A stretch of DNA of 32,000 nucleotides from Candidatus Nanobsidianus stetteri. Lineage in GTDB: Archaea; Nanobdellota; Nanobdellia; Nanobdellales; Nanobdellaceae. The stretch is from NCBI RefSeq assembly GCF_003086415.1, contig NZ_QEFP02000004.1:1-32000 (forward strand). Reading direction: 5' to 3'. A program made the position numbers and the translations under genes. The notes under the pieces were generated by a model. That model did not search any database and had not been told where the DNA came from. It saw nothing but the letters and a program-made list of their open reading frames with translations. This document shows, one piece after another, positions 3,814-16,130 of the stretch. The number at the start of each line of letters is the position of its first letter. Position 1 is the stretch's first letter.

Positions 3814-4086
3814 TTAACTTGATGTATTTGTATTATTTTGATTACTAGATGTATTTGTATTATTTAAGTTAATATTTCCATTTAATGCATTTTGAACAGT
3901 ATTATAGGCTTGCTGACTTTCATTGATAAATTGCATTGTACTATTTTTGATATTTTGAAAAATTGTATTATTTTCTAAATATCCAAGGATTTGATTGTGA
4001 TATAAATAGGCTACTACTATTAAAATTATTAGAATTAATAAAAAGATCACCCCACTTCCAGAGCTTTTAACTCCTCTCTTCTTCAT
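3814..4086 (-). CDS. Small membrane-anchored/exported protein with an Asn/Thr/Ser-rich tail
   Basis: 90 aa. MKKRGVKSSGSGVIFLLILIILIVVAYLY is a basic head plus one hydrophobic helix. The C-terminus carries sequons (NNT, NST, NES) and a duplicated NNTNTSS unit. Confidence 0.5.
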   Translation of the reverse strand: MKKRGVKSSGSGVIFLLILIILIVVAYLYHNQILGYLENNTIFQNIKNSTMQFINESQQAYNTVQNALNGNINLNNTNTSSNQNNTNTSS

Positions 4087-4118
4087 AAAGCAATTATAAA
4101 TTTCTTTATTTATAAATT

Positions 4119-5171
4119 TTAAGATATTTGTAAATAATCTATCTCAAGATAATTATCTGTCTTTATTTCTAATAGATTCTCTGGCAATAGACAATTATAT
4201 ATATTTATTGCATAAGCACCTACGGATGAACTTATATTGTATATGCAATTATTATTTAGTATAACTTCTCCAGATCCTTGACCAACTATAATATCTAATA
4301 TATAATTTGTTAAATTATTTGGAAATGCTATATAAAATATGTTACTCTTTGATTCTATATATAGATTATTTATATTAACTGGATATGATGATACTAAACT
4401 AATACTATTTTCTCCAACATTTAAATATGGAGTTAAATAAAATAAACCAGAACAAGAAGATAAAGGAATTGATAACCCATTTACAATTAATTCTACATTT
4501 TGAGGAGAATATGGACAAAAATCATAAAACATATATACATCTCCAGATATATAATAATAATTAAAATTTAATGATGAAAACTTTAGATAATTTACATTTA
4601 TATTATTCAATACACCATTTCCATTGAATATTATACTAGATGGGGAAAATTCTATTTTTAACTCATTATCACCATTATATAGATAATTTGGAGGGACAAA
4701 AATACTTATTTCACCATTTTGACATCCAGAATATAATTCATAATTATTTACGTATATATTAAAGTTTCCATTGTTACATGTAGAATAAGCAGTAATATTT
4801 ATTCCGTTATAATTATTGGAATAATAAAAATATAATGTCTTACTAACTGTTCCATAAAATATATTTGTTTCAAAATTTAAAGTTCCTAAATTAATATAAT
4901 ATACTGGCGTATAGATTCCTATTGTATAATTACTTGCTATATAATAATAATTTTGGCTTTTTGATAATTGTATATTTTGAAAAACATATTGATTACTAAT
5001 ATTTGTATATGAAGAATTTGAAGAAGAAGACAATGTTATATTAGTTCCATTAATTAATTGTTGTATTAAATATTGTTTATATTGATATGGAAGAATTGCC
5101 CAGTATACAAAAATTATTATACCCAGTAATATGAAGAATATACCCAAACCTGTTGTTTGCAATTTTTTCAT
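4119..5171 (-). CDS. Exported/surface protein, N/S/Y-rich, many N-x-S/T sequons (function unknown)
   Basis: 350 aa. The N-terminus is MKKLQTTGLGIFFILLGIIIFVYWAIL. I see no Arg at all and few Lys. Sequons include NGT, NIT, NSS, NIS, NYT, NLT. It has 6 Cys. The composition is completely unlike the K/E-rich cytosolic proteins nearby. Confidence 0.6.
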   Translation of the reverse strand: MKKLQTTGLGIFFILLGIIIFVYWAILPYQYKQYLIQQLINGTNITLSSSSNSSYTNISNQYVFQNIQLSKSQNYYYIASNYTIGIYTPVYYINLGTLNFETNIFYGTVSKTLYFYYSNNYNGINITAYSTCNNGNFNIYVNNYELYSGCQNGEISIFVPPNYLYNGDNELKIEFSPSSIIFNGNGVLNNINVNYLKFSSLNFNYYYISGDVYMFYDFCPYSPQNVELIVNGLSIPLSSCSGLFYLTPYLNVGENSISLVSSYPVNINNLYIESKSNIFYIAFPNNLTNYILDIIVGQGSGEVILNNNCIYNISSSVGAYAINIYNCLLPENLLEIKTDNYLEIDYLQIS

Positions 5172-7310: not shown

Positions 7311-7667
7311 ATGCCATTAATAATACCATCTCCAGAATATGCTAAAAGAAGGAAAATATTACAGATTAATAACAAAATTAAAAAATTGGAAAAAGATAGG
7401 ACTGGAAAGATAACTTTAGTATTAAAAAAGGAAATAGATCTAAACAATCTCAATGAATCATTAAAATTTATATCTATGTTAAAAGAATTGGAGGGAAGAA
7501 ATTTCTTTGACGAATTATATATTGTTAAATCCGATAGAGTATTTGATTATTTAGATATAGAAAGAGGATTAGACCAAAAAAGTATAGAAAAAGAAAAATT
7601 AATAAAATTGTATAATATAATAAGTAGGTTCTCAAATATAATAGATAAAATTAAAAAAATCTATTAG
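7311..7667 (+). CDS. Hypothetical protein (118 aa)
   Basis: An isolated plus-strand ORF inside a long minus-strand block, with K/E/I-rich composition and no recognisable motif. Its 3' end overlaps the convergent coiled-coil gene by 4 nt. Confidence 0.45.
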   Translation: MPLIIPSPEYAKRRKILQINNKIKKLEKDRTGKITLVLKKEIDLNNLNESLKFISMLKELEGRNFFDELYIVKSDRVFDYLDIERGLDQKSIEKEKLIKLYNIISRFSNIIDKIKKIY

Positions 7668-8827
7668 TATTTATATTCTTTTTCTACTTTTATATTTTTA
7701 GATAATAATAATCTCTTTATATTTTCTATATCATTCTCTATTATTTTTATTTTTTCTATTTCATTTATTATATATTCAAAGTTGGTCAAATCAATAAAAT
7801 TCTCTATTTTCTTTATTTTATTCATTAAATTTTCATAATCTGATAATACAGATTCCAATATATCTTTAGAATCATATAATTCTACTTTTATCTTTCTAAT
7901 TTCTTCTTTAATATTATTTAGACCTTCCTCCAATTTGTTATATTTTTCATTAAGCTCTTCTATTTTATCTATATCATTTACTTTTGATCTTAAATCTACA
8001 ACCAAATTATTTAATTCTTCAAATAATGCATATATACTATTTAATCTATTTTCGAAATTTACATATTTGTTATATAATTCTTCATAAGCCTTAAATTGTT
8101 TTATATTTTTAATATCATCGTTTGTTAATTGTAATAAGTAATTCATATTACTTATTTTATTATTAATTTCAGAATATTTTTCTTCATATTTCTTTTCTAT
8201 CTCTTCCAATTTACTATTAACATTATATAGATCTTTTTCCCTTATCTCGCTTATCATTTCAGATATTTTATTGTACTGTAATAGATCTTTAGATAAATTA
8301 TCTAGTGTTTTGGATAATAAATTTGTTAAATTATCTACTTTTAGTTTTAAATCATTAAAATCATTAATATTTTTATACGAATCTTCTATTTTATTTAACT
8401 TATCAGTTAAATCTTCTATTTTATTTCTTAAATCTTTTACGCTATTTATAACATCTTCATATTTTGTTATTTTATTACTTAAAGAATTTATATCGAGCTC
8501 TAATTTATTTATCTTTGATTTTACATTTACTATAGCAGAATAATCAACAAAATTTTTCTGATTATTTTCTAATACATCTACTCTTAGTTTTAAATCGTTT
8601 AAATATCTTACTTTATCCAATAAATCTTCATTTAATATTTCCTTATAATTATTTAATATTTTTTCTACATTTTCTAATTCTTCTTTCAAAGCTTTTAATT
8701 GATTATTGAATTCTTCCCTACTTACAAAATTATTCAAGTTTCTTTTTATTTCTAATATCTTATTGTTAAAATTTTTTACATATGAAAAAAATTCATCTAT
8801 TATATCTACATTTTTATTTAAATCCAT
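7664..8827 (-). CDS. Long coiled-coil protein (387 aa), function unknown
   Basis: Heptad-like N/K/E/L/I sequence runs throughout, with no TM segment and no Walker motifs. It has internal repeats (NDLKLRVDVLEN / NDLKLKVDNLTN; NKIEDLTDKLNKIEDS) that are also visible as DNA repeats. Confidence 0.6.
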   Translation of the reverse strand: MDLNKNVDIIDEFFSYVKNFNNKILEIKRNLNNFVSREEFNNQLKALKEELENVEKILNNYKEILNEDLLDKVRYLNDLKLRVDVLENNQKNFVDYSAIVNVKSKINKLELDINSLSNKITKYEDVINSVKDLRNKIEDLTDKLNKIEDSYKNINDFNDLKLKVDNLTNLLSKTLDNLSKDLLQYNKISEMISEIREKDLYNVNSKLEEIEKKYEEKYSEINNKISNMNYLLQLTNDDIKNIKQFKAYEELYNKYVNFENRLNSIYALFEELNNLVVDLRSKVNDIDKIEELNEKYNKLEEGLNNIKEEIRKIKVELYDSKDILESVLSDYENLMNKIKKIENFIDLTNFEYIINEIEKIKIIENDIENIKRLLLSKNIKVEKEYKY

Positions 8828-8858
8828 AAACTATTATTTATAATAAATTTTATTAAAC

Positions 8859-9179
8859 TTACCAAATACTTTTTAATAATTCCTTTCTTATGTCATCAAT
8901 TTCTTTCTTTATCATATCATATTTTAATTCTAAATTATATAACCTCTTTTTAATATCATCTATGTCTTTGAGTTTTAAGTTTATTTCTAATAAAATTATT
9001 TTTAATTCATCCAATAATTTATTGTATTCATTATTTTTATCAAAAATATTTTTTAATTTTAAATATTTATCATAAATCTCTTCTTTTATTTTTTTATTTT
9101 TTTCCAATTCTTCTTTTAAATTCTTAATTTTATTTTCTAGATCTTCTATAATTTTTTCATATTCGCTTATTTCATCCAT
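8859..9179 (-). CDS. Small coiled-coil protein (106 aa), translationally coupled to PolB
   Basis: Its ATG at 9179..9177 lies within AATGGATGA, where the PolB frame reads AAT GGA TGA (an 8-nt overlap). The sequence is entirely heptad-like (IEDLENKIKNLKEELEKNKKIKEEI...). Confidence 0.55.
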   Translation of the reverse strand: MDEISEYEKIIEDLENKIKNLKEELEKNKKIKEEIYDKYLKLKNIFDKNNEYNKLLDELKIILLEINLKLKDIDDIKKRLYNLELKYDMIKKEIDDIRKELLKSIW

Positions 9180-11592
9180 TTTTAAAAAATGATAATATAT
9201 CTTTTTGAGCTTTTCCTATATTTTCTATAGATATATTTAATGCCCTTAGTATTGGTTCTATAGCCGGTAAGACTTGTTTATATATATAATATTCGGGATC
9301 ATATTCATTATCTTTAACTTCATCTAATATCCTAACTTTATCAGAAATTTTTTCCCCACCTTTTGCTATAATATATTCGACTATAAATCCTCTTCTAACA
9401 TCATAGCCCCTTTCCTTATATTTTTTTGCTGCTATAATATGAGGAGCAGTAACTTCATATTCTGATGGATCTTTTCTTAATTGTTCTCTTAATATAAATT
9501 TCTCTTTGGGATAAACATGATATCTTATATTTTTAATAACTTCAGACAAATAATTATTTATTTCTTTTATTTTTCCTTCTAATGCTAATTTAATTACCTT
9601 TTCCTGAACCTCTCCAGCAATTTCTGACCAATCCCTTCTAACAACTTCAAAACCTCTCAATTTAATATTTCCATTTTCAGATAATAATGCATATTTTTTT
9701 CTAGCACCACCTTCTCCAGATCTTTTTTCTACAAATATTCCTGATATATAATAATCTTCAAATTCCATTTCCAATGGTTTTGGTAAAATATTATTTATTT
9801 TATTTAATAAATTTAGAGCATTTTCTTTATTATCTACAATAACAAATATAGAATCTGTATCTCCATATAATATTTTATATCCATTTTTTTCAATAAAATC
9901 TTTTACTTCTAATATATGTTTTCTACCTAGAGCAGTTACTGAAGCTGCACATTCTAAACAATACCATCTAGAATTTGGAAATCCCAAATAACCATATGTA
10001 GAATTTATTATATATTTTAATGCTGTTTGCCTACTATCAATTATTTTATATTCTTCAGAATTCTTATCTAAACCTTTTAAAGCTTTCTTTAAATTTGCCC
10101 TTTCTTCAAACACTTTTTCTAATACTGTAGATATAAATCCTTTTTTCTTTTTACAATACCATACTTCAGATTTTCCTAGACTTGTTTCAATATTTATTTT
10201 ATCCTTCATACATTCTTCATGTTCACATTTCAATGTATCTGGAGAAATATTATATCTAATTATTATTGATGGATATAGAGATCTAAAATCAAAAACCGCA
10301 ATATTTTTATACAAACCCGGTTTTGGTTCTAGTACAATAGCACCAGTGTATGTTACTCTTTTTCTATTATTTACTTCATTTGGATCCGGTCTGTTTGGTA
10401 TTATTTCATTAAATTCTTTTGCCCTTTTTATTAGATAATTTTCTACAAGAATTCCATATGTACTTCCTGATAATTCATATAAAGTAATTCCAACCAATCT
10501 CGCCAATTCTAATAAAATTCCTTCAAAATGTTTATATAATCTATAAGTTAATTCTACATCTTTTCTATTATATTCTATTAGATAATTGAAATCTTTTTTA
10601 TTATAAATTATATCTGACATTTTATCCAAATTCATGTCCAATTTTCCTTCTCCCAATATTTCCATAGCAACTTCATCTAAAGAATATGTTTCAGAATTTA
10701 ACTGAGGTGCAAATATTGTTGTAACAATATCATATAAATCTACATTTTGTATTCCAACTATTCTATATTTTTTATCTTCTTCTCTTTTTTTAGTATATAT
10801 TATTCCTTTTCCATCCCATCCAAAATCAAAATTAAATCCCAATCTTTTTGCTTTCTCATATAAAAAATATAAATCAAAATTATTAGAATTATATCCAACA
10901 ATTACATCTGGATCTAAACTTTTAACTATTTCATTAAATTTTTTTAATAATTCTAATTCACTATTTACTTTTATTCCATCATTTGCTTCTCCTCCCCAAT
11001 ATATTGAATAATATTTTTGCCCATCATATATTGAGATAATATAAATATTTGCCTTTTCTGGTGATATTATGGATTTATTAGAAGCTGTTTCTATATCAAA
11101 TGCTATAACCTTTAATTTATATTTATTTTCAACAATTCCGTTATTTTTCTTTAATTTGTAATAATCTATATTATCTCCTTTCTTTATTAATTCTAATTCC
11201 AAATCATATGTATATAACGGATATATATCATTATCTATTTGAAACTTTTTTATTATACTAATATCCCCCTCTTTTTTTCCAATTATTTTTCCTTCCTCCT
11301 TCAATTTATCAGCAAAGTTTTTTATTTTATCATAATCATCCTGATTCAAATAAACTTTTATTACATTATATTCTTTTCCTATAAAATTTTTCTTTGAAAT
11401 TTCAAAATTTTTTACATATTTTTCATCTTTCAATTTATTCTTTATTTCTTCTAAATATTTTTCGTCCTTTAATATTAAATATACATAAAATGGTTGATCA
11501 TATTCTATTCTTACTTTTTTTCCATTTTCATCCCTCCCATAAATATAAATTTTTTCTTTATCATGATCAAAATCTAATACAAATATTTTCAT
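9172..11592 (-). CDS. polB: Family B DNA polymerase (contiguous, no intein)
   Basis: 806 aa. Exonuclease motifs are present (AFDIETA; YNSNNFDLYFL; YNRKDVELTY) along with polymerase motifs A DFRSLYPSII, B KYIINSTYGYLG and C YGDTDS. The C-terminus QKDILSFF is a canonical PIP box (QxxIxxFF). Confidence 0.95.
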   Translation of the reverse strand: MKIFVLDFDHDKEKIYIYGRDENGKKVRIEYDQPFYVYLILKDEKYLEEIKNKLKDEKYVKNFEISKKNFIGKEYNVIKVYLNQDDYDKIKNFADKLKEEGKIIGKKEGDISIIKKFQIDNDIYPLYTYDLELELIKKGDNIDYYKLKKNNGIVENKYKLKVIAFDIETASNKSIISPEKANIYIISIYDGQKYYSIYWGGEANDGIKVNSELELLKKFNEIVKSLDPDVIVGYNSNNFDLYFLYEKAKRLGFNFDFGWDGKGIIYTKKREEDKKYRIVGIQNVDLYDIVTTIFAPQLNSETYSLDEVAMEILGEGKLDMNLDKMSDIIYNKKDFNYLIEYNRKDVELTYRLYKHFEGILLELARLVGITLYELSGSTYGILVENYLIKRAKEFNEIIPNRPDPNEVNNRKRVTYTGAIVLEPKPGLYKNIAVFDFRSLYPSIIIRYNISPDTLKCEHEECMKDKINIETSLGKSEVWYCKKKKGFISTVLEKVFEERANLKKALKGLDKNSEEYKIIDSRQTALKYIINSTYGYLGFPNSRWYCLECAASVTALGRKHILEVKDFIEKNGYKILYGDTDSIFVIVDNKENALNLLNKINNILPKPLEMEFEDYYISGIFVEKRSGEGGARKKYALLSENGNIKLRGFEVVRRDWSEIAGEVQEKVIKLALEGKIKEINNYLSEVIKNIRYHVYPKEKFILREQLRKDPSEYEVTAPHIIAAKKYKERGYDVRRGFIVEYIIAKGGEKISDKVRILDEVKDNEYDPEYYIYKQVLPAIEPILRALNISIENIGKAQKDILSFFKNG

Positions 11593-11622: not shown

Positions 11623-13065
11623 TTAACCTTTTATAACTGCTATTGGTCTTAATCTTACAACCATTTTAGATATACCCAATTCATCAGTTACTTTTACAAC
11701 TTCATCAACATTTTTATAAGCTTCAGGTACTTCTTCAACTACACCTTCTTTTGTTGTAGATTTTACATATATTCCCCTTTCTTCTAAATTTTTAATTACT
11801 TCATTATAATTAAATGATCTTCTCGCAGCAGCTCTTGACATATTTCTTCCTGCACCATGTGCTGAGGATCCAAAAGATAATTCCATAGATTTTTCAGATC
11901 CTATTAATACATATGATGCAGTTCCCATTGAACCTGGGATTAATACTGGTTGTCCAATACTTCTATAATCTTCAACCAATTCTTCTGAACCTGGCGGAAA
12001 TGCTCTAGTAGCACCTTTTCTATGAACAACTAATTTTTTCTTTTTACCATCAACCTTATGTTCTTCAATTTTTGCAATATTATGGGCAACATCATATATA
12101 ACATTTAATCCAATATCCTCTACTGGATGATTATATACTTTTTGGAAAGATTTTCTGATAAAATATGTTATTATTTGTCTATTATTCCATGCAAAATTTG
12201 CTGCAGCACTCATTGACTTCCAATAATTATTTCCATCTTCGGATTGAAATGGTAAATATACTAATTCTTTATCTGGTAATTTATTTATTTCTTCTCTATA
12301 TTTTTTCAATCCTAGATCTATATAATCTGATGCAATTTGATGTCCAAAACCTCTAGAACCTGTATGAATTAATATTGTTACCTGCCCTTCTTCATATATT
12401 CCCAATTTATTTGCTATATCTTTATCAAATATTTTATCAACTATCTGTATTTCTATAAAATGATTTCCGGATCCTATAGTTCCCAATTGATCTATTCCTC
12501 TTCTAATTGCTAAATCTGATACATGTTCTATCGAAGCATCTTTTAATCTACCATAAGATTCTACATGCTCTAAATCCTCTTTCCATGCATAACCTTCTCT
12601 ATAACTCCATTCTAAACCTTCTTCTACTACATCTTTAAATTGTCCTGGAGATAAAACAATTTTTCCAGTTTCTCCAACTCCAGCAGGTACATTTCTAAAT
12701 ATTTCATTAACAATTTCCTTTAATTTTGGTTTTATCTCTTCATATTTTAAATTTGTTCTTAATAACCTTACCCCACAATTTATATCATATCCTATCCCAC
12801 CTGGAGATATTATTCCTTCATTTATATCAAATGCTGCAACTCCTCCAACTGGAAATCCGTAACCTTCATGACCATCTGGCATTACAATAGAATATTTTTG
12901 TATTCCTGGTAAACTAGCAACATTTTTTCCCTGTATTAATGTTTTATCTTCTCTCATCTTCTCTATTAACTTATCATTTGCATATACTCTAACTGGAACA
13001 TTCATTCCTTTTTCTTGTGGTATTTCATATATATTTTCAGATATTTTTCTTAACTTTATATCCAT
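11623..13065 (-). CDS. rtcB: RNA-splicing ligase RtcB
   Basis: 480 aa with RtcB signatures GGIGYDINCGVRLL, GSGNHFIEIQ, HTGSRGFGHQ, GSMGTASY and SSAHGAGR. Confidence 0.95.
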   Translation of the reverse strand: MDIKLRKISENIYEIPQEKGMNVPVRVYANDKLIEKMREDKTLIQGKNVASLPGIQKYSIVMPDGHEGYGFPVGGVAAFDINEGIISPGGIGYDINCGVRLLRTNLKYEEIKPKLKEIVNEIFRNVPAGVGETGKIVLSPGQFKDVVEEGLEWSYREGYAWKEDLEHVESYGRLKDASIEHVSDLAIRRGIDQLGTIGSGNHFIEIQIVDKIFDKDIANKLGIYEEGQVTILIHTGSRGFGHQIASDYIDLGLKKYREEINKLPDKELVYLPFQSEDGNNYWKSMSAAANFAWNNRQIITYFIRKSFQKVYNHPVEDIGLNVIYDVAHNIAKIEEHKVDGKKKKLVVHRKGATRAFPPGSEELVEDYRSIGQPVLIPGSMGTASYVLIGSEKSMELSFGSSAHGAGRNMSRAAARRSFNYNEVIKNLEERGIYVKSTTKEGVVEEVPEAYKNVDEVVKVTDELGISKMVVRLRPIAVIKG

Positions 13066-14241: not shown

Positions 14242-14858
14242 TTTATTATTTCTCTAATTTTTTCTTTTAATATATCTCCTAATGCTATACCTATAGCAAT
14301 TGAAATAGATATAACTATTCCGCCAAAAAGTATTATGAACATATAGAGAAGAACTGGAGATAGTATATTTAAATAACTAAGCGTTAACACTAATATAAAA
14401 AATAAAACAATAAATCTTATTGAACCTAATATAAAGTTTACATACTTAAAATTCTGGATTGCTGGATATAAAAAAGATCTCAATATAAATTCCATCATTG
14501 CATACGAAATTATTATTACTATTATTATTATTAGTAAACTGTTTAATATATTAAAAATAATAGTTCCTATATTACTAACATACGGAATTATATAAAATGA
14601 AAATCCAATAAAATAAAAGTATATAAAGAACTTAGTTATATTTACTATTAGATCTGTAAGAGAATATGTTGTCATTATTTGTTTATCATGCAACCATCTA
14701 TCGAGACCAAGAACTTTTTTCAATATTATTTTAAGTATTAATGCTATAAGTTTTCCTATAAAGTATCCAATTATTATAATAGAAATAGAAATTAATATTA
14801 TTTTTAATATATTATAGTTAAATATTTGAAGTATTTGATTGGTAATATTTTCCAGCAT
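14238..14858 (-). CDS. Membrane protein with TM-helix repeats (MscS-N-terminal-like), function unknown
   Basis: 206 aa with several TM segments. The pattern GYFIGKLIALILKIILKKVLGLDRWL and the C-terminal GIALGDILKEKIREI resemble the conserved TM helix repeat. Its stop overlaps the downstream start (ATGA at 14238-14241). Confidence 0.4.
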   Translation of the reverse strand: MLENITNQILQIFNYNILKIILISISIIIIGYFIGKLIALILKIILKKVLGLDRWLHDKQIMTTYSLTDLIVNITKFFIYFYFIGFSFYIIPYVSNIGTIIFNILNSLLIIIIVIIISYAMMEFILRSFLYPAIQNFKYVNFILGSIRFIVLFFILVLTLSYLNILSPVLLYMFIILFGGIVISISIAIGIALGDILKEKIREIIK

Positions 14859-14986
14859 AATATTATCTAAAAAAATGGTAATTTATAAATTCATAGTCCT
14901 ATTAAAATTGATATAACTTTTAAATAGTAAAATAATTTTACTGCTAGAGAGATCTTCAAAATATTTTTATGTTACCTAAATTTAGA

Positions 14987-15059
14987 TAGCCCCGCGGGGA
15001 TTCGAACCCCGGTCTCAGGGACCAAAACCCTGAATCCTAGACCACTAGACGACGGGGCT
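14987..15059 (-). tRNA. tRNA-Gln (anticodon UUG)
   Basis: The reverse complement AGCCCCGTCGTCTAGTGGTCTAGGATTCAGGGTTTTGGTCCCTGAGACCGGGGTTCGAATCCCCGCGGGGCTA folds as a cloverleaf. The acceptor is AGCCCCG/CGGGGCT. The anticodon stem CAGGG/CCCTG has loop TT-TTG-GT. The T arm is CGGGG-TTCGAAT-CCCCG. CCA is not encoded. Confidence 0.9.
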
Positions 15060-15071
15060 ATATAGCATATC

Positions 15072-16130
15072 ATGTTCTTTAAATTTAATAATATTTTTAT
15101 TAAACAATTTTATATGAATGATACTGAAATGCTTAATTTTTTTAAATTAAAAGATAATCCTTTTAAATTAGAGGTAATTCTAGAAACTTTTGTTGGATAT
15201 AATTTAGAAAGAACAAAATTATTAAATTCTATAAATAATAAAGAAAAAATTATTTTAGTTTCAGGTCCTACTGGAGCAGGAAAAACAACATTATTATTAT
15301 GGATATATAATAATCTTAAAACAAAGAATAAAGTATATATTTATAGACCCTTTGAAAAAATGGAAGAATTTGAAAAATATTTTATTGATAAATTATCTTT
15401 CTTTGAAAGAATAATATATAAATTTAAGAAATTCAACATAGTAGAATATTTAAATAAGAAAAATCTAATAATATTTTTAGATGAAGCCACATTTTGCGAT
15501 GATAATATCTTAGAATGGATAAAAGTAATATCGGATCAAACAAATTGTACATTTATATTAGCTGGCTTGCCAGAACTTGAAGAAAGATTATTAAAACAAC
15601 ATAGGACATTATATGAAAGAATTGTAACAAAAATATATTTAAAATCTCTTGACCCTGAAAGCGGTAAATTATTAATTAAAAAAAGGTTAGAACTTGCAGG
15701 TAATCCAAATTTATTTACAGAAGATGCAATAGAAGAAATATACAATTTATCAGGTGGCTTACCAAGGGAAATATTAAAATATTCTTATGAAGCATTATTA
15801 ATTGCATATAGAGAAAAGAAAAATATTATTGATAAAGATATTGTAGAAAAGATATATGAAGCAAAGAAACCACCAACAGATTTATTAAAATTAACAGAAA
15901 AACAAAGATACATAGTAGAATTAATAACAAAATATGGTCCAAAAACAGTTAATGAATTATTAAAATTGTTTAAAGAAAGATATTCGGACACAACAATTCA
16001 TGCAATATCAAATATATTAAAAAGAATGACTGAAAGTAAAATATTAATTAGGACAAAAGTAAAGGGTAAATTTGTATATGATGTTGTACCTGCAATAAAG
16101 GATTATTTCATAAGAGAAATAAATAAATGA
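15072..16130 (+). CDS. AAA+ ATPase (AAA_22/ExeA- and ORC-like) with C-terminal winged-helix domain
   Basis: Walker A is VSGPTGAGKTTLL and Walker B is IIFLDEATF. An ExeA-like N-terminal FFKLKDNPF and GGLPREILKY are present. The C-terminal wHTH-like segment is LTEKQRYIVELITKYGPKTVNELL...ILKRMTESKILIR. The true start may be the ATG at 15114, because 15072 lies only 12 nt from the divergent tRNA-Gln. Confidence 0.65.
   Translation: MFFKFNNIFIKQFYMNDTEMLNFFKLKDNPFKLEVILETFVGYNLERTKLLNSINNKEKIILVSGPTGAGKTTLLLWIYNNLKTKNKVYIYRPFEKMEEFEKYFIDKLSFFERIIYKFKKFNIVEYLNKKNLIIFLDEATFCDDNILEWIKVISDQTNCTFILAGLPELEERLLKQHRTLYERIVTKIYLKSLDPESGKLLIKKRLELAGNPNLFTEDAIEEIYNLSGGLPREILKYSYEALLIAYREKKNIIDKDIVEKIYEAKKPPTDLLKLTEKQRYIVELITKYGPKTVNELLKLFKERYSDTTIHAISNILKRMTESKILIRTKVKGKFVYDVVPAIKDYFIREINK

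Follow-up and report, generated by a model that had tools for sequence, protein, structure and literature searches.

A lineage-restricted pair of coiled-coil proteins encoded downstream of polB in Candidatus Nanobsidianus stetteri: possible subunits of a cytoplasmic structural fibre

The window considered here, positions 1 to 32,000 of contig NZ_QEFP02000004.1 from Candidatus Nanobsidianus stetteri (RefSeq assembly GCF_003086415.1; 449 kb in 20 contigs, 66% complete), contains two adjacent minus-strand genes, cc106 and cc387, that encode coiled-coil proteins. Both are real genes under purifying selection. We give an even chance to the reading that their products are subunits of a cytoplasmic coiled-coil structural fibre or scaffold specific to hot-spring Nanobdellales. 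According to this proposal, cc387 would be an abundant 46-kDa rod, several tens of nm long, built of helical segments that meet at conserved interruptions of 9 or 6 residues, the best of these with beta-layer residues, and a conserved C-terminal block would provide a docking surface. Its small neighbour cc106, predicted as a single helix of 15 nm, would have to pair either with itself or with part of cc387. Genomes of 0.5-0.8 Mb retain few genes without a strong reason, and ∼1.5 kb are spent here on two coiled coils devoid of a head domain. In what follows, g1 denotes the window genus and f1 its family (genera g1 to g4); genome G016 represents g2, genome G019 belongs to another family, f2, and G004 is a g1 genome whose cc387 orthologue is 88% identical to that of the window.

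The two proteins differ in their predicted architecture. An earlier note, made from the letters of the DNA, had described both as uninterrupted heptad-type sequence without transmembrane segment, nucleotide-binding motif or cysteine, and had recognised no family for either. The heptads are confirmed for cc106 (106 aa, 13.1 kDa, minus strand, 8859..9179), which shows a coherent period of 3.5 (z = 5.0 relative to shuffled sequences) and is modelled by AlphaFold2, from a 12-sequence alignment, as a single helix spanning residues 2-105 (pLDDT 88.8). They break down for cc387 (387 aa, 46.4 kDa, minus strand, 7664..8827), which keeps no heptad phase over its whole length (z = 1.1) and is modelled from 16 sequences as a segmented coiled coil of 8-9 helices (pLDDT 64, pTM 0.28), with breaks at residues 32-36, 60-66, 89-96, 151-154, 227-243, 283-285 and 348-349. 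The other statements of the note stand: maximal KD19 values of 0.81 and 0.47 indicate no transmembrane segment in the two proteins, neither sequence contains a Walker A motif or any cysteine, and no curated family matches either of them. Both proteins are also free of histidine and proline, cc387 contains one glycine, and the sole tryptophan of the pair is the last residue of cc106. Prefoldins consist of two coiled-coil helices linked by a central beta-hairpin; a hairpin or prefoldin fold was rejected for cc106 in view of its single unbroken helix and a Prefoldin_2 score of 13.2 bits against a cut-off of 27.6.

The discontinuities of cc387 may be understood in the light of alpha/beta coiled coils. 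Inserting 2 or 6 residues turns a coiled coil locally into a beta-layer, and all the beta-layer structures described by Hartmann et al. are homotrimers (eLife 2016, PMC4786415). The corresponding residue rules place D, N, T or S (N-cap) at position β3, K or R at e and D, E or Q at g (PMC4786415); β1 is hydrophobic, as is the a position that comes next. Hartmann et al. 2016 identified internal beta-layers in only a few proteins of solved structure (PMC4786415); that of MPN010 from Mycoplasma pneumoniae (PDB 2BA2) reads LKNFVTKTEF in the register abc-βββ-efg-a and is followed by hendecads (Table 2, PMC4786415). In cc387, the conserved hydrophobic columns are spaced by 3-4 residues, a pattern broken by intervals of 9 (a31-a40 and a90-a99) and 6 (151-157), so that a nonad or hexad coincides with a motif at each of three sites; the register was assigned by hand from the 16-sequence alignment and is moderately reliable. 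Site 1 (LNNFVSREEF, residues 31-40, minus strand, 8708..8737) adopts the register of MPN010, with the nonad a31-a40 followed by one hendecad (a40, e44, h47, a51), follows these rules with S at β3, R at e and E at g, and aligns F-V-S-R-E-E-F with F-V-T-K-T-E-F. The two other sites are partly canonical. Site 2 (QKNFVDYSAI, residues 90-99, minus strand, 8531..8560) has a conserved 9-residue spacing and an invariant N92, while site 3 (YKNINDF, residues 151-157, minus strand, 8357..8377) is a hexad for which relatives possess the canonical YVNKEEF or YTKKEEF.

Comparison across the family points in the same direction. The motif takes the general form [FY]V[ES][KR]xE[FY], which likewise matches the MPN010 layer, and a relaxed version occupies the site 1 column in 9 of the 16 family members; the G019 orthologue reads AVTKEEF there. 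In all, 13 matches to the relaxed motif were counted, concentrated at residues 34 and 151, where 2.7 were expected and 500 shuffles never exceeded 8. In the AlphaFold2 model, a low-confidence monomer, DSSP assigns 'EE' at residues 34-35 and 94-95, inside both NFV motifs. Conserved discontinuities of 9 and 6 residues combined with beta-layer residues suggest that the likeliest state of cc387 is a parallel homotrimer of the alpha/beta coiled-coil type, which is to be taken as a well-motivated prediction and not as a result.

Two further regions, the most conserved parts of cc387, are likely interaction surfaces, as judged from the family alignment. The linker YL..I[ST].[ED]DIKNIK (residues 228-245, minus strand, 8093..8146) departs from the heptad pattern, carries the invariant residues L231 and D238 and is modelled by AlphaFold2 as coil or short helix; it was considered as a fourth beta-layer and rejected, its hydrophobic spacing being 5, not 6. 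The most conserved block of the family, E..D.KDI ... KIKKIEN.I.L.N.EYI..IEKIK.LE.DIENIKR (residues 316-375, minus strand, 7703..7882), contains D319, D322, E342 and E364, which stay invariant even with the G019 orthologue added. An extra C-terminal helix, LE..IKKLYE.QN.IL (∼25-40 aa), is found in the cc387 orthologues of g2, g3, g4 and f2 and has been lost in the window genus. The DNA repeats that the earlier note had seen in this gene exist and are weak: 8325-8363 matches 8568-8606 with 74% identity over 39 nt, there is an internal copy at 8382-8424, and identities are 72-76% overall. A profile comparison of cc106 with cc387 gave a probability of 72% over 70 columns, a match too weak to support an origin of cc106 by duplication of a part of cc387, and that claim was dropped.

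The extreme base composition of this DNA calls for caution, as the earlier note had itself stressed. The G+C content ranges from 18 to 30% across the window and is 18-19% in the region of the coiled-coil genes, which predicts sequences rich in K, N, I and E; the two open reading frames (ORFs) might then be spurious or decaying, with a coiled-coil look due to A+T content. Several observations have already refuted this explanation, to which virtually no weight can be given. Glycine, proline and alanine are depleted in cc106 and cc387 far beyond the level seen in polB, rtcB and pelota, neighbours of the same base composition that also lack heptad periodicity, so A+T bias alone does not account for the composition of the pair. 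The ratios of non-synonymous to synonymous substitutions (dN/dS, Nei-Gojobori, relative to close species) are 0.11-0.16 for cc387 and 0.05-0.11 for cc106, far below the value of ∼1 that the note had named as the sign of absent purifying selection. Full-length, collinear orthologues of both genes occur in 12 of 12 other g1 genomes and in the other f1 genera, those of cc387 down to 19-25% identity, and cc106 orthologues are likewise found in g2-g4 and in G019. In the close species represented by G002, the cc387 orthologue (G002:C3:18438-19598, 94% identity) has an in-frame TAA within the match, which may reflect faulty sequencing or assembly, or else recent pseudogene formation.

Expression, a further argument against spurious ORFs, has been documented by proteomics in the cultured relative N. 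acidilobi. The cc387 orthologue, Nps_02095, accounts for 0.55% of spectra and occupies rank 44 (Wurch et al. 2016, PMC4935971, Suppl. Data 1), which places it within the top 50 most abundant proteins of that organism; PolB (Nps_02105) is found at rank 95 (PMC4935971). Nps_02095 is listed without transmembrane segment or signal peptide (PMC4935971). The cc387 orthologue is thus expressed and abundant in N. acidilobi.

The distribution of the family is narrow. When 1.84 billion representative proteins were searched with a profile, about six full-length clusters came out (200-468 bits), below which scores drop abruptly to generic long coiled coils matched piecemeal at 93 bits or less. Of 20 other genomes in the order, 18 carry the family, namely 17 of 18 from f1 and G019 from f2, where the cc387 orthologue (E = 3e-22 with the first profile) is collinear and shares the C-terminal motifs. 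It was unmatched in G013, a genome 76% complete, and in G020, a complete genome in which PolB is encoded as two distant genes; this split is a hallmark of Nanoarchaeum equitans, and G020 is accordingly called N. equitans-like. No full-length match was found in 280 other genomes of the class, which gave only ∼30-bit partial matches to the generic middle region. These sequence searches place the family exclusively in hot-spring Nanobdellales, formerly Nanoarchaeota (Nanopusillus, Nanobdella and Nanoclepta-like lineages). A word-based protein search retrieved only relatives at least 83% identical; the best score in the ESM Atlas was 0.88, to unnamed clusters and under the useful range; and a related-locus search with the divergent member P0016, which is carried by a 26.6-kb ENA contig, found nothing in genome or metagenome contigs, while the same search with the G019 protein returned a single Elusimicrobia coiled coil, rejected as spurious. 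Pfam and NCBIfam matches to ATG17_like, NPV_P10, DUF1664, Rad50, SMC, ASRP and arcadin-4 were rejected as compositional, being sub-threshold and mutually inconsistent. In profile searches of PDB sequences, the matches were confined to designed coiled coils, HA2, spike HR1 and sigma-1, and none of them is a homologue.

The position of the pair directly downstream of polB led to a different proposal. The minus strand carries a co-directional string headed by rtcB (RNA ligase, 11623..13065) and continuing with polB (9172..11592; Pfam DNA_pol_B 6.4e-73, with exonuclease domains), cc106 and cc387. The product of polB, a family-B replicative DNA polymerase of 806 aa, ends in the PCNA-interacting protein (PIP) box QKDILSFF, located by regular expression at residue 796, and the gene has a dN/dS of 0.076 relative to G004. 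The junction reads AAAAATGGATGAAATA: cc106 starts with an ATG at 9179, 8 nt within polB, which ends with its TGA at 9174-9172; the overlap is ATGGATGA (9172..9179), and a 31-nt spacer (8828..8858) separates cc106 from cc387. From this layout, which it had read correctly, the earlier note proposed translational coupling to PolB and a possible role as filament or tether in the replisome, in chromosome organisation or in division; the pair might, in the same vein, segregate the chromosome and perhaps compensate for a missing canonical structural maintenance of chromosomes (SMC) protein. Gene packing offers little ground for this. With a crude ORF model applied to the whole assembly (minimum length 100 aa, earliest start codon taken), 30% of 284 same-strand neighbour pairs overlap and the median gap is 31 nt; overlaps of 4, 1 and 8 nt occur in 35, 12 and 9 pairs, respectively. 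Moreover polB is as closely packed with rtcB, a gene of unrelated function, as with cc106, and rtcB and polB overlap by 1 nt in G017 and G018. The polB-cc106 junction thus has nothing unusual for this genome.

Synteny and phylogeny bear on the same question. In g1, g3 and g4, the order polB-cc106-cc387 is kept with overlaps or gaps of at most 18 nt, which speaks for the replisome proposal; what is conserved in these three genera, however, is the whole block rtcB-polB-cc106-cc387-orf118-A24-pelota and not the polB-cc junction specifically. Gene order in G004 equals, gene by gene, that of the N. acidilobi table (Wurch et al. 2016), which runs RtcB, PolB, small ORF, Nps_02095, uncharacterised protein, 7-transmembrane protein and eRF1/pelota (PMC4935971). 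The arrangement is different in two lineages. In G016, polB is followed by a membrane protein and the pair stands head-to-head with an archaellin gene across a spacer of ∼50 nt; in G019, the gene after polB encodes a convergent secretion ATPase and the pair is divergent to an archaellin gene. That ATPase (L032, G019:C10, 2978-4759, minus strand) has 593 aa, is of the T2SSE/ArlI-PilB type, and its end overlaps the polB stop region. A maximum-likelihood tree of PolB, rooted with four class-level outgroups, has the topology (G019,(G016,((g3),(g4,g1)))), with 100/99 at the key nodes. As the archaellin-adjacent pair occurs in the two earliest branches, the adjacency to polB is a derived state, acquired by a single change in the crown group; synteny with polB, on which the earlier note had made its proposal depend, thus holds in three genera and fails at the family and order level. 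Co-transcription of the pair with rtcB-polB in the window genus is probable, and would result from one rearrangement followed by genome compaction closing the gap, not from a role at the replication fork. polB is an upstream neighbour, outside the coiled-coil system.

Other arguments bear on a replisome or SMC-like function. In N. acidilobi, orc1/cdc6 and GINS genes lie in the same region, and the complete genomes searched with PF02463 yield only a Rad50 of 751-755 aa next to Mre11. In the window assembly, the genes for Mre11 (379 aa) and a short Rad50 (751 aa) overlap by 4 nt on contig 9 (L047, G000:C9, 1165-4556, minus strand). PF02463 detected no long canonical SMC in the three complete genomes of the genus; however, it detected none either in the N. 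equitans-like genome, which has no homologue of the pair, and the pair was accordingly rejected as an SMC substitute. SMC proteins have ∼900-1200 aa, N- and C-terminal halves of an ATP-binding cassette (ABC) ATPase head and a central hinge or zinc hook. PIP boxes are usually terminal; the regular expression Qxx[LIVM]xx[FY][FY], which finds that of PolB, finds none in cc106 or cc387; Walker A is lacking and PF02463 has no match at the pair locus in any genome searched; no hinge domain is among the Pfam matches listed for cc387, which has 387 aa and no cysteine; and a basic patch is absent from two proteins that are both acidic, with pI values of 5.0 and 5.4. In N. acidilobi, the cc387 orthologue also outranks PolB in abundance. 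The pair nevertheless bears suggestive public names, Nps_02095 being called 'Chromosome segregation ATPase' (arCOG00371, and also the JGI name of P0006) and Nps_02100, the cc106 orthologue, 'ribosomal protein S11'. The first name reflects only coiled-coil similarity, at 26-38 bits against cut-offs of 300-1087; relative to the NCBIfam SMC and Rad50 models (cut-offs 567-1087), the scores of cc387 are more than an order of magnitude short. Both names are mis-annotations, since the cc387 orthologue has no ATPase and the cc106 orthologue is a single-helix coiled coil, and neither should be propagated. Given this evidence, a replisome- or chromosome-associated tether coupled to PolB appears improbable, and an appealing but unsupported replisome story can be replaced by a concrete prediction, that of a trimer of the alpha/beta coiled-coil type containing internal beta-layers.

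The ancestral neighbourhood could hint at a link with the archaellum. The pair could be an accessory of the archaellum or of another type-IV filament, whose ancestral promoter region was shared with the major archaellin and whose products form a cytoplasmic scaffold, for example a polar cap or a motor-associated structure. The head-to-head arrangement found in another family (G019) and in the earliest-branching f1 genus (G016), which the PolB tree makes ancestral, favours this view, as do the archaellins of G004, G001 and G014, which share the strand of the pair at a distance of 14-17 kb. With cc106 at the far end in these genomes, the arrangement is consistent with one inversion having its breakpoint between archaellin and cc106, the ancestral gene order being reconstructed in part only. 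A class-III signal peptidase-like (A24) gene and pilin-like N-termini are found just downstream, the family and the archaellin genes both occur in f1 and f2 and are both unmatched in the N. equitans-like genome, and FlaC_arch gives weak matches. Against this view, FlaC_arch scores are 15.3 bits for cc106 and 14-20 bits for cc387 orthologues against a cut-off of 27.8, and Arch_fla_DE has no match at the pair locus. The slot of ArlC-ArlD/E is filled by a genuine fusion (G004:C1:171286-171780; FlaC_arch 43 bits, Arch_fla_DE 69 bits), which lies beside ArlI and ArlH in N. acidilobi. Further such fusions occur at G001:496745-497242, G014:C1:190986-191477 and G019:C13:27-530; all four are single ORFs, 215-261 aa long. 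The fusion of FlaC_arch with Arch_fla_DE implies a euryarchaeal-type archaellum switch protein in these nanoarchaea, and the pair was rejected as a substitute for ArlCDE or ArlX. In ArlX, which is encoded in the arl cluster, a transmembrane helix at the N-terminus precedes the coiled coil; the pair has no transmembrane segment and lies outside the arlI/arlH cluster. Furthermore, ArlI, ArlH, ArlD/E and both archaellins have no abundance values in the N. acidilobi table, in which the cc387 orthologue ranks high; reviews describe the arl genes as scattered in these genomes, so that neighbourhood carries little weight; the arrangement is seen in two lineages only; and co-occurrence rests on three related clades. 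An archaellum accessory is on balance unlikely.

Returning to the lineage-specific fibre or scaffold, a number of points weigh against it. The AlphaFold2 model of cc387 is poor. The motif enrichment corresponds to two or three conserved sites in related members and not to independent events; in the window species, only site 1 has the full set of canonical beta-layer residues, and β3 is a glutamate in many relatives. Hartmann et al. themselves caution that beta-layer-like patterns are frequent in coiled coils (PMC4786415). The cc106 orthologue, Nps_02100, was undetected in the N. acidilobi proteome (PMC4935971). Finally, the order polB-cc106-cc387 and its tight junctions have been kept while PolB identity to the window fell to 57-59%, which leaves some room for a functional link with the polymerase. 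The trimeric state, fibre formation, the partnership of cc106 with cc387 and the role in the cell are what we infer; the reality of the genes and the constraint on them, the expression and abundance of the cc387 orthologue, the helical and segmented architecture, the agreement in motif and register, the restriction to this lineage and the derived adjacency to polB are what the analysis shows.

If cc387 does form fibres, structures seen in cultured relatives come to mind. In 11 of 31 YN1 cells, electron cryotomography showed 6.6-nm cytoplasmic filaments gathered in bundles (PMC11420986), and in cultured hot-spring Nanobdellota an attachment organelle bridges symbiont and host, with a ∼7-nm intercellular filament or tube and a gate (YN1, PMC11420986; Nanobdella aerobiophila, PMC11104419). 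The proteins of the cytoplasmic filaments and of the attachment organelle are explicitly left without identity in these studies (PMC11420986, PMC11104419). The pair is confined to lineages related to those showing these structures and had no match in the N. equitans-like genome. That cc387, with cc106, builds the 6.6-nm bundles or the ∼7-nm filament or tube and gate of the organelle is nevertheless a rather doubtful assignment, because the link is made through abundance, absence of transmembrane segment and signal peptide, shape and lineage only. Its interest is to place the pair on a short list of candidates for the filaments and attachment-organelle parts of DPANN symbionts.

In the spacer between the two genes, TTTAATAA occupies roughly positions -30 to -23 relative to the cc387 ATG, its centre being ∼26 nt upstream. 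This block could be an internal TATA box, at a distance fitting archaeal leaderless mRNA, and such a promoter, if real, could account for an abundance of cc387 above that of PolB. In DNA of 18% G+C, TTTAATAA could easily arise by chance, and the promoter reading is unproven because g3 and g4 have overlaps or 4-nt gaps in place of the spacer. On the other side of cc387, the string meets convergent orf118, the A24 peptidase-like gene and pelota. The stop codon of orf118 (plus strand, 7311..7667) overlaps that of cc387 by 4 nt; its product is a conserved basic protein of 118 aa (pI 9.6) that begins with MPLIIPSPEY, is under purifying selection (dN/dS of 0.07-0.20 between close species) and matches no Pfam or NCBIfam family. 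The gene is present in all f1 genera, and the G019 pair has no orf118 beside it; orf118 counts here as a neighbour of the pair. Downstream of pelota (3814-5171, minus strand), two ORFs beginning with MKKLQTTGLGIFFILLG and MKKRGVKSSGSGVIFLL each encode a basic stretch followed by a hydrophobic helix. These N-termini resemble class-III (pilin-type) signal peptides, and the ORFs lie two genes from the A24 peptidase-like gene. At the other end of the locus, a tRNA gene (14987-15059, minus strand) adjoins a divergent gene for a 352-aa AAA+/winged-helix protein (15072-16130; region 14858-16130), whose counterpart in the N. acidilobi table is probably orc1/cdc6, Nps_02130. A gene-strand switch and a local minimum of cumulative GC skew coincide at ∼14-15 kb, a few kb upstream of rtcB-polB, and this region may be a replication origin.

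How the pair relates to known systems can be summarised by four comparisons. With SMC, Rad50 and archaea-specific SMC-related proteins, cc387 shares only a long coiled-coil character and sub-threshold profile matches; it has neither ABC head halves nor hinge nor zinc hook, is one third of the length of an SMC, and coexists with a real Rad50 encoded elsewhere. With ArlC/D/E and ArlX, the pair has in common a cytoplasmic coiled-coil content and, in two lineages, an ancestral position beside archaellin genes, but it stays below the FlaC_arch cut-off and possesses neither an Arch_fla_DE domain nor an N-terminal transmembrane helix. Comparable in general design are crescentin, FilP and Scy, intermediate-filament-like members of the coiled-coil-rich cytoskeletal proteins of bacteria and archaea, which form dimers with heptad rods and stutters and whose class is defined by filament assembly in vitro without cofactors. 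These resemble cc387 in size (300-430 aa), in a segmented rod with linkers, in the lack of an enzymatic domain, in high abundance and in a plausible scaffold role, whereas the 9- and 6-residue discontinuities of cc387, with their beta-layer residues, point to trimers, and there is no sequence relation. The nearest local resemblance is with MPN010. DUF16, the family of MPN010, was not among the matches listed in Pfam scans of whole cc387 and of residues 1-110 and 1-245 (E up to 10), nor was DUF3782 among the Pfam matches listed for cc387, so that no homology is proposed and the local motif alone is shared. Unlike the solved fragments, cc387 is far longer, carries an additional conserved C-terminal block and is accompanied by a small partner gene; it shows a single canonical site in the window species, and its trimeric state is a prediction. 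MPN010 likewise has no assigned function. Both are nonetheless long head-less coiled coils of genome-reduced or prokaryotic cells with near-identical local motifs (KNFVTKTEF and NNFVSREEF), the same abc-βββ-efg-a nonad followed by a hendecad, and the same obedience to the N-cap, e and g rules.

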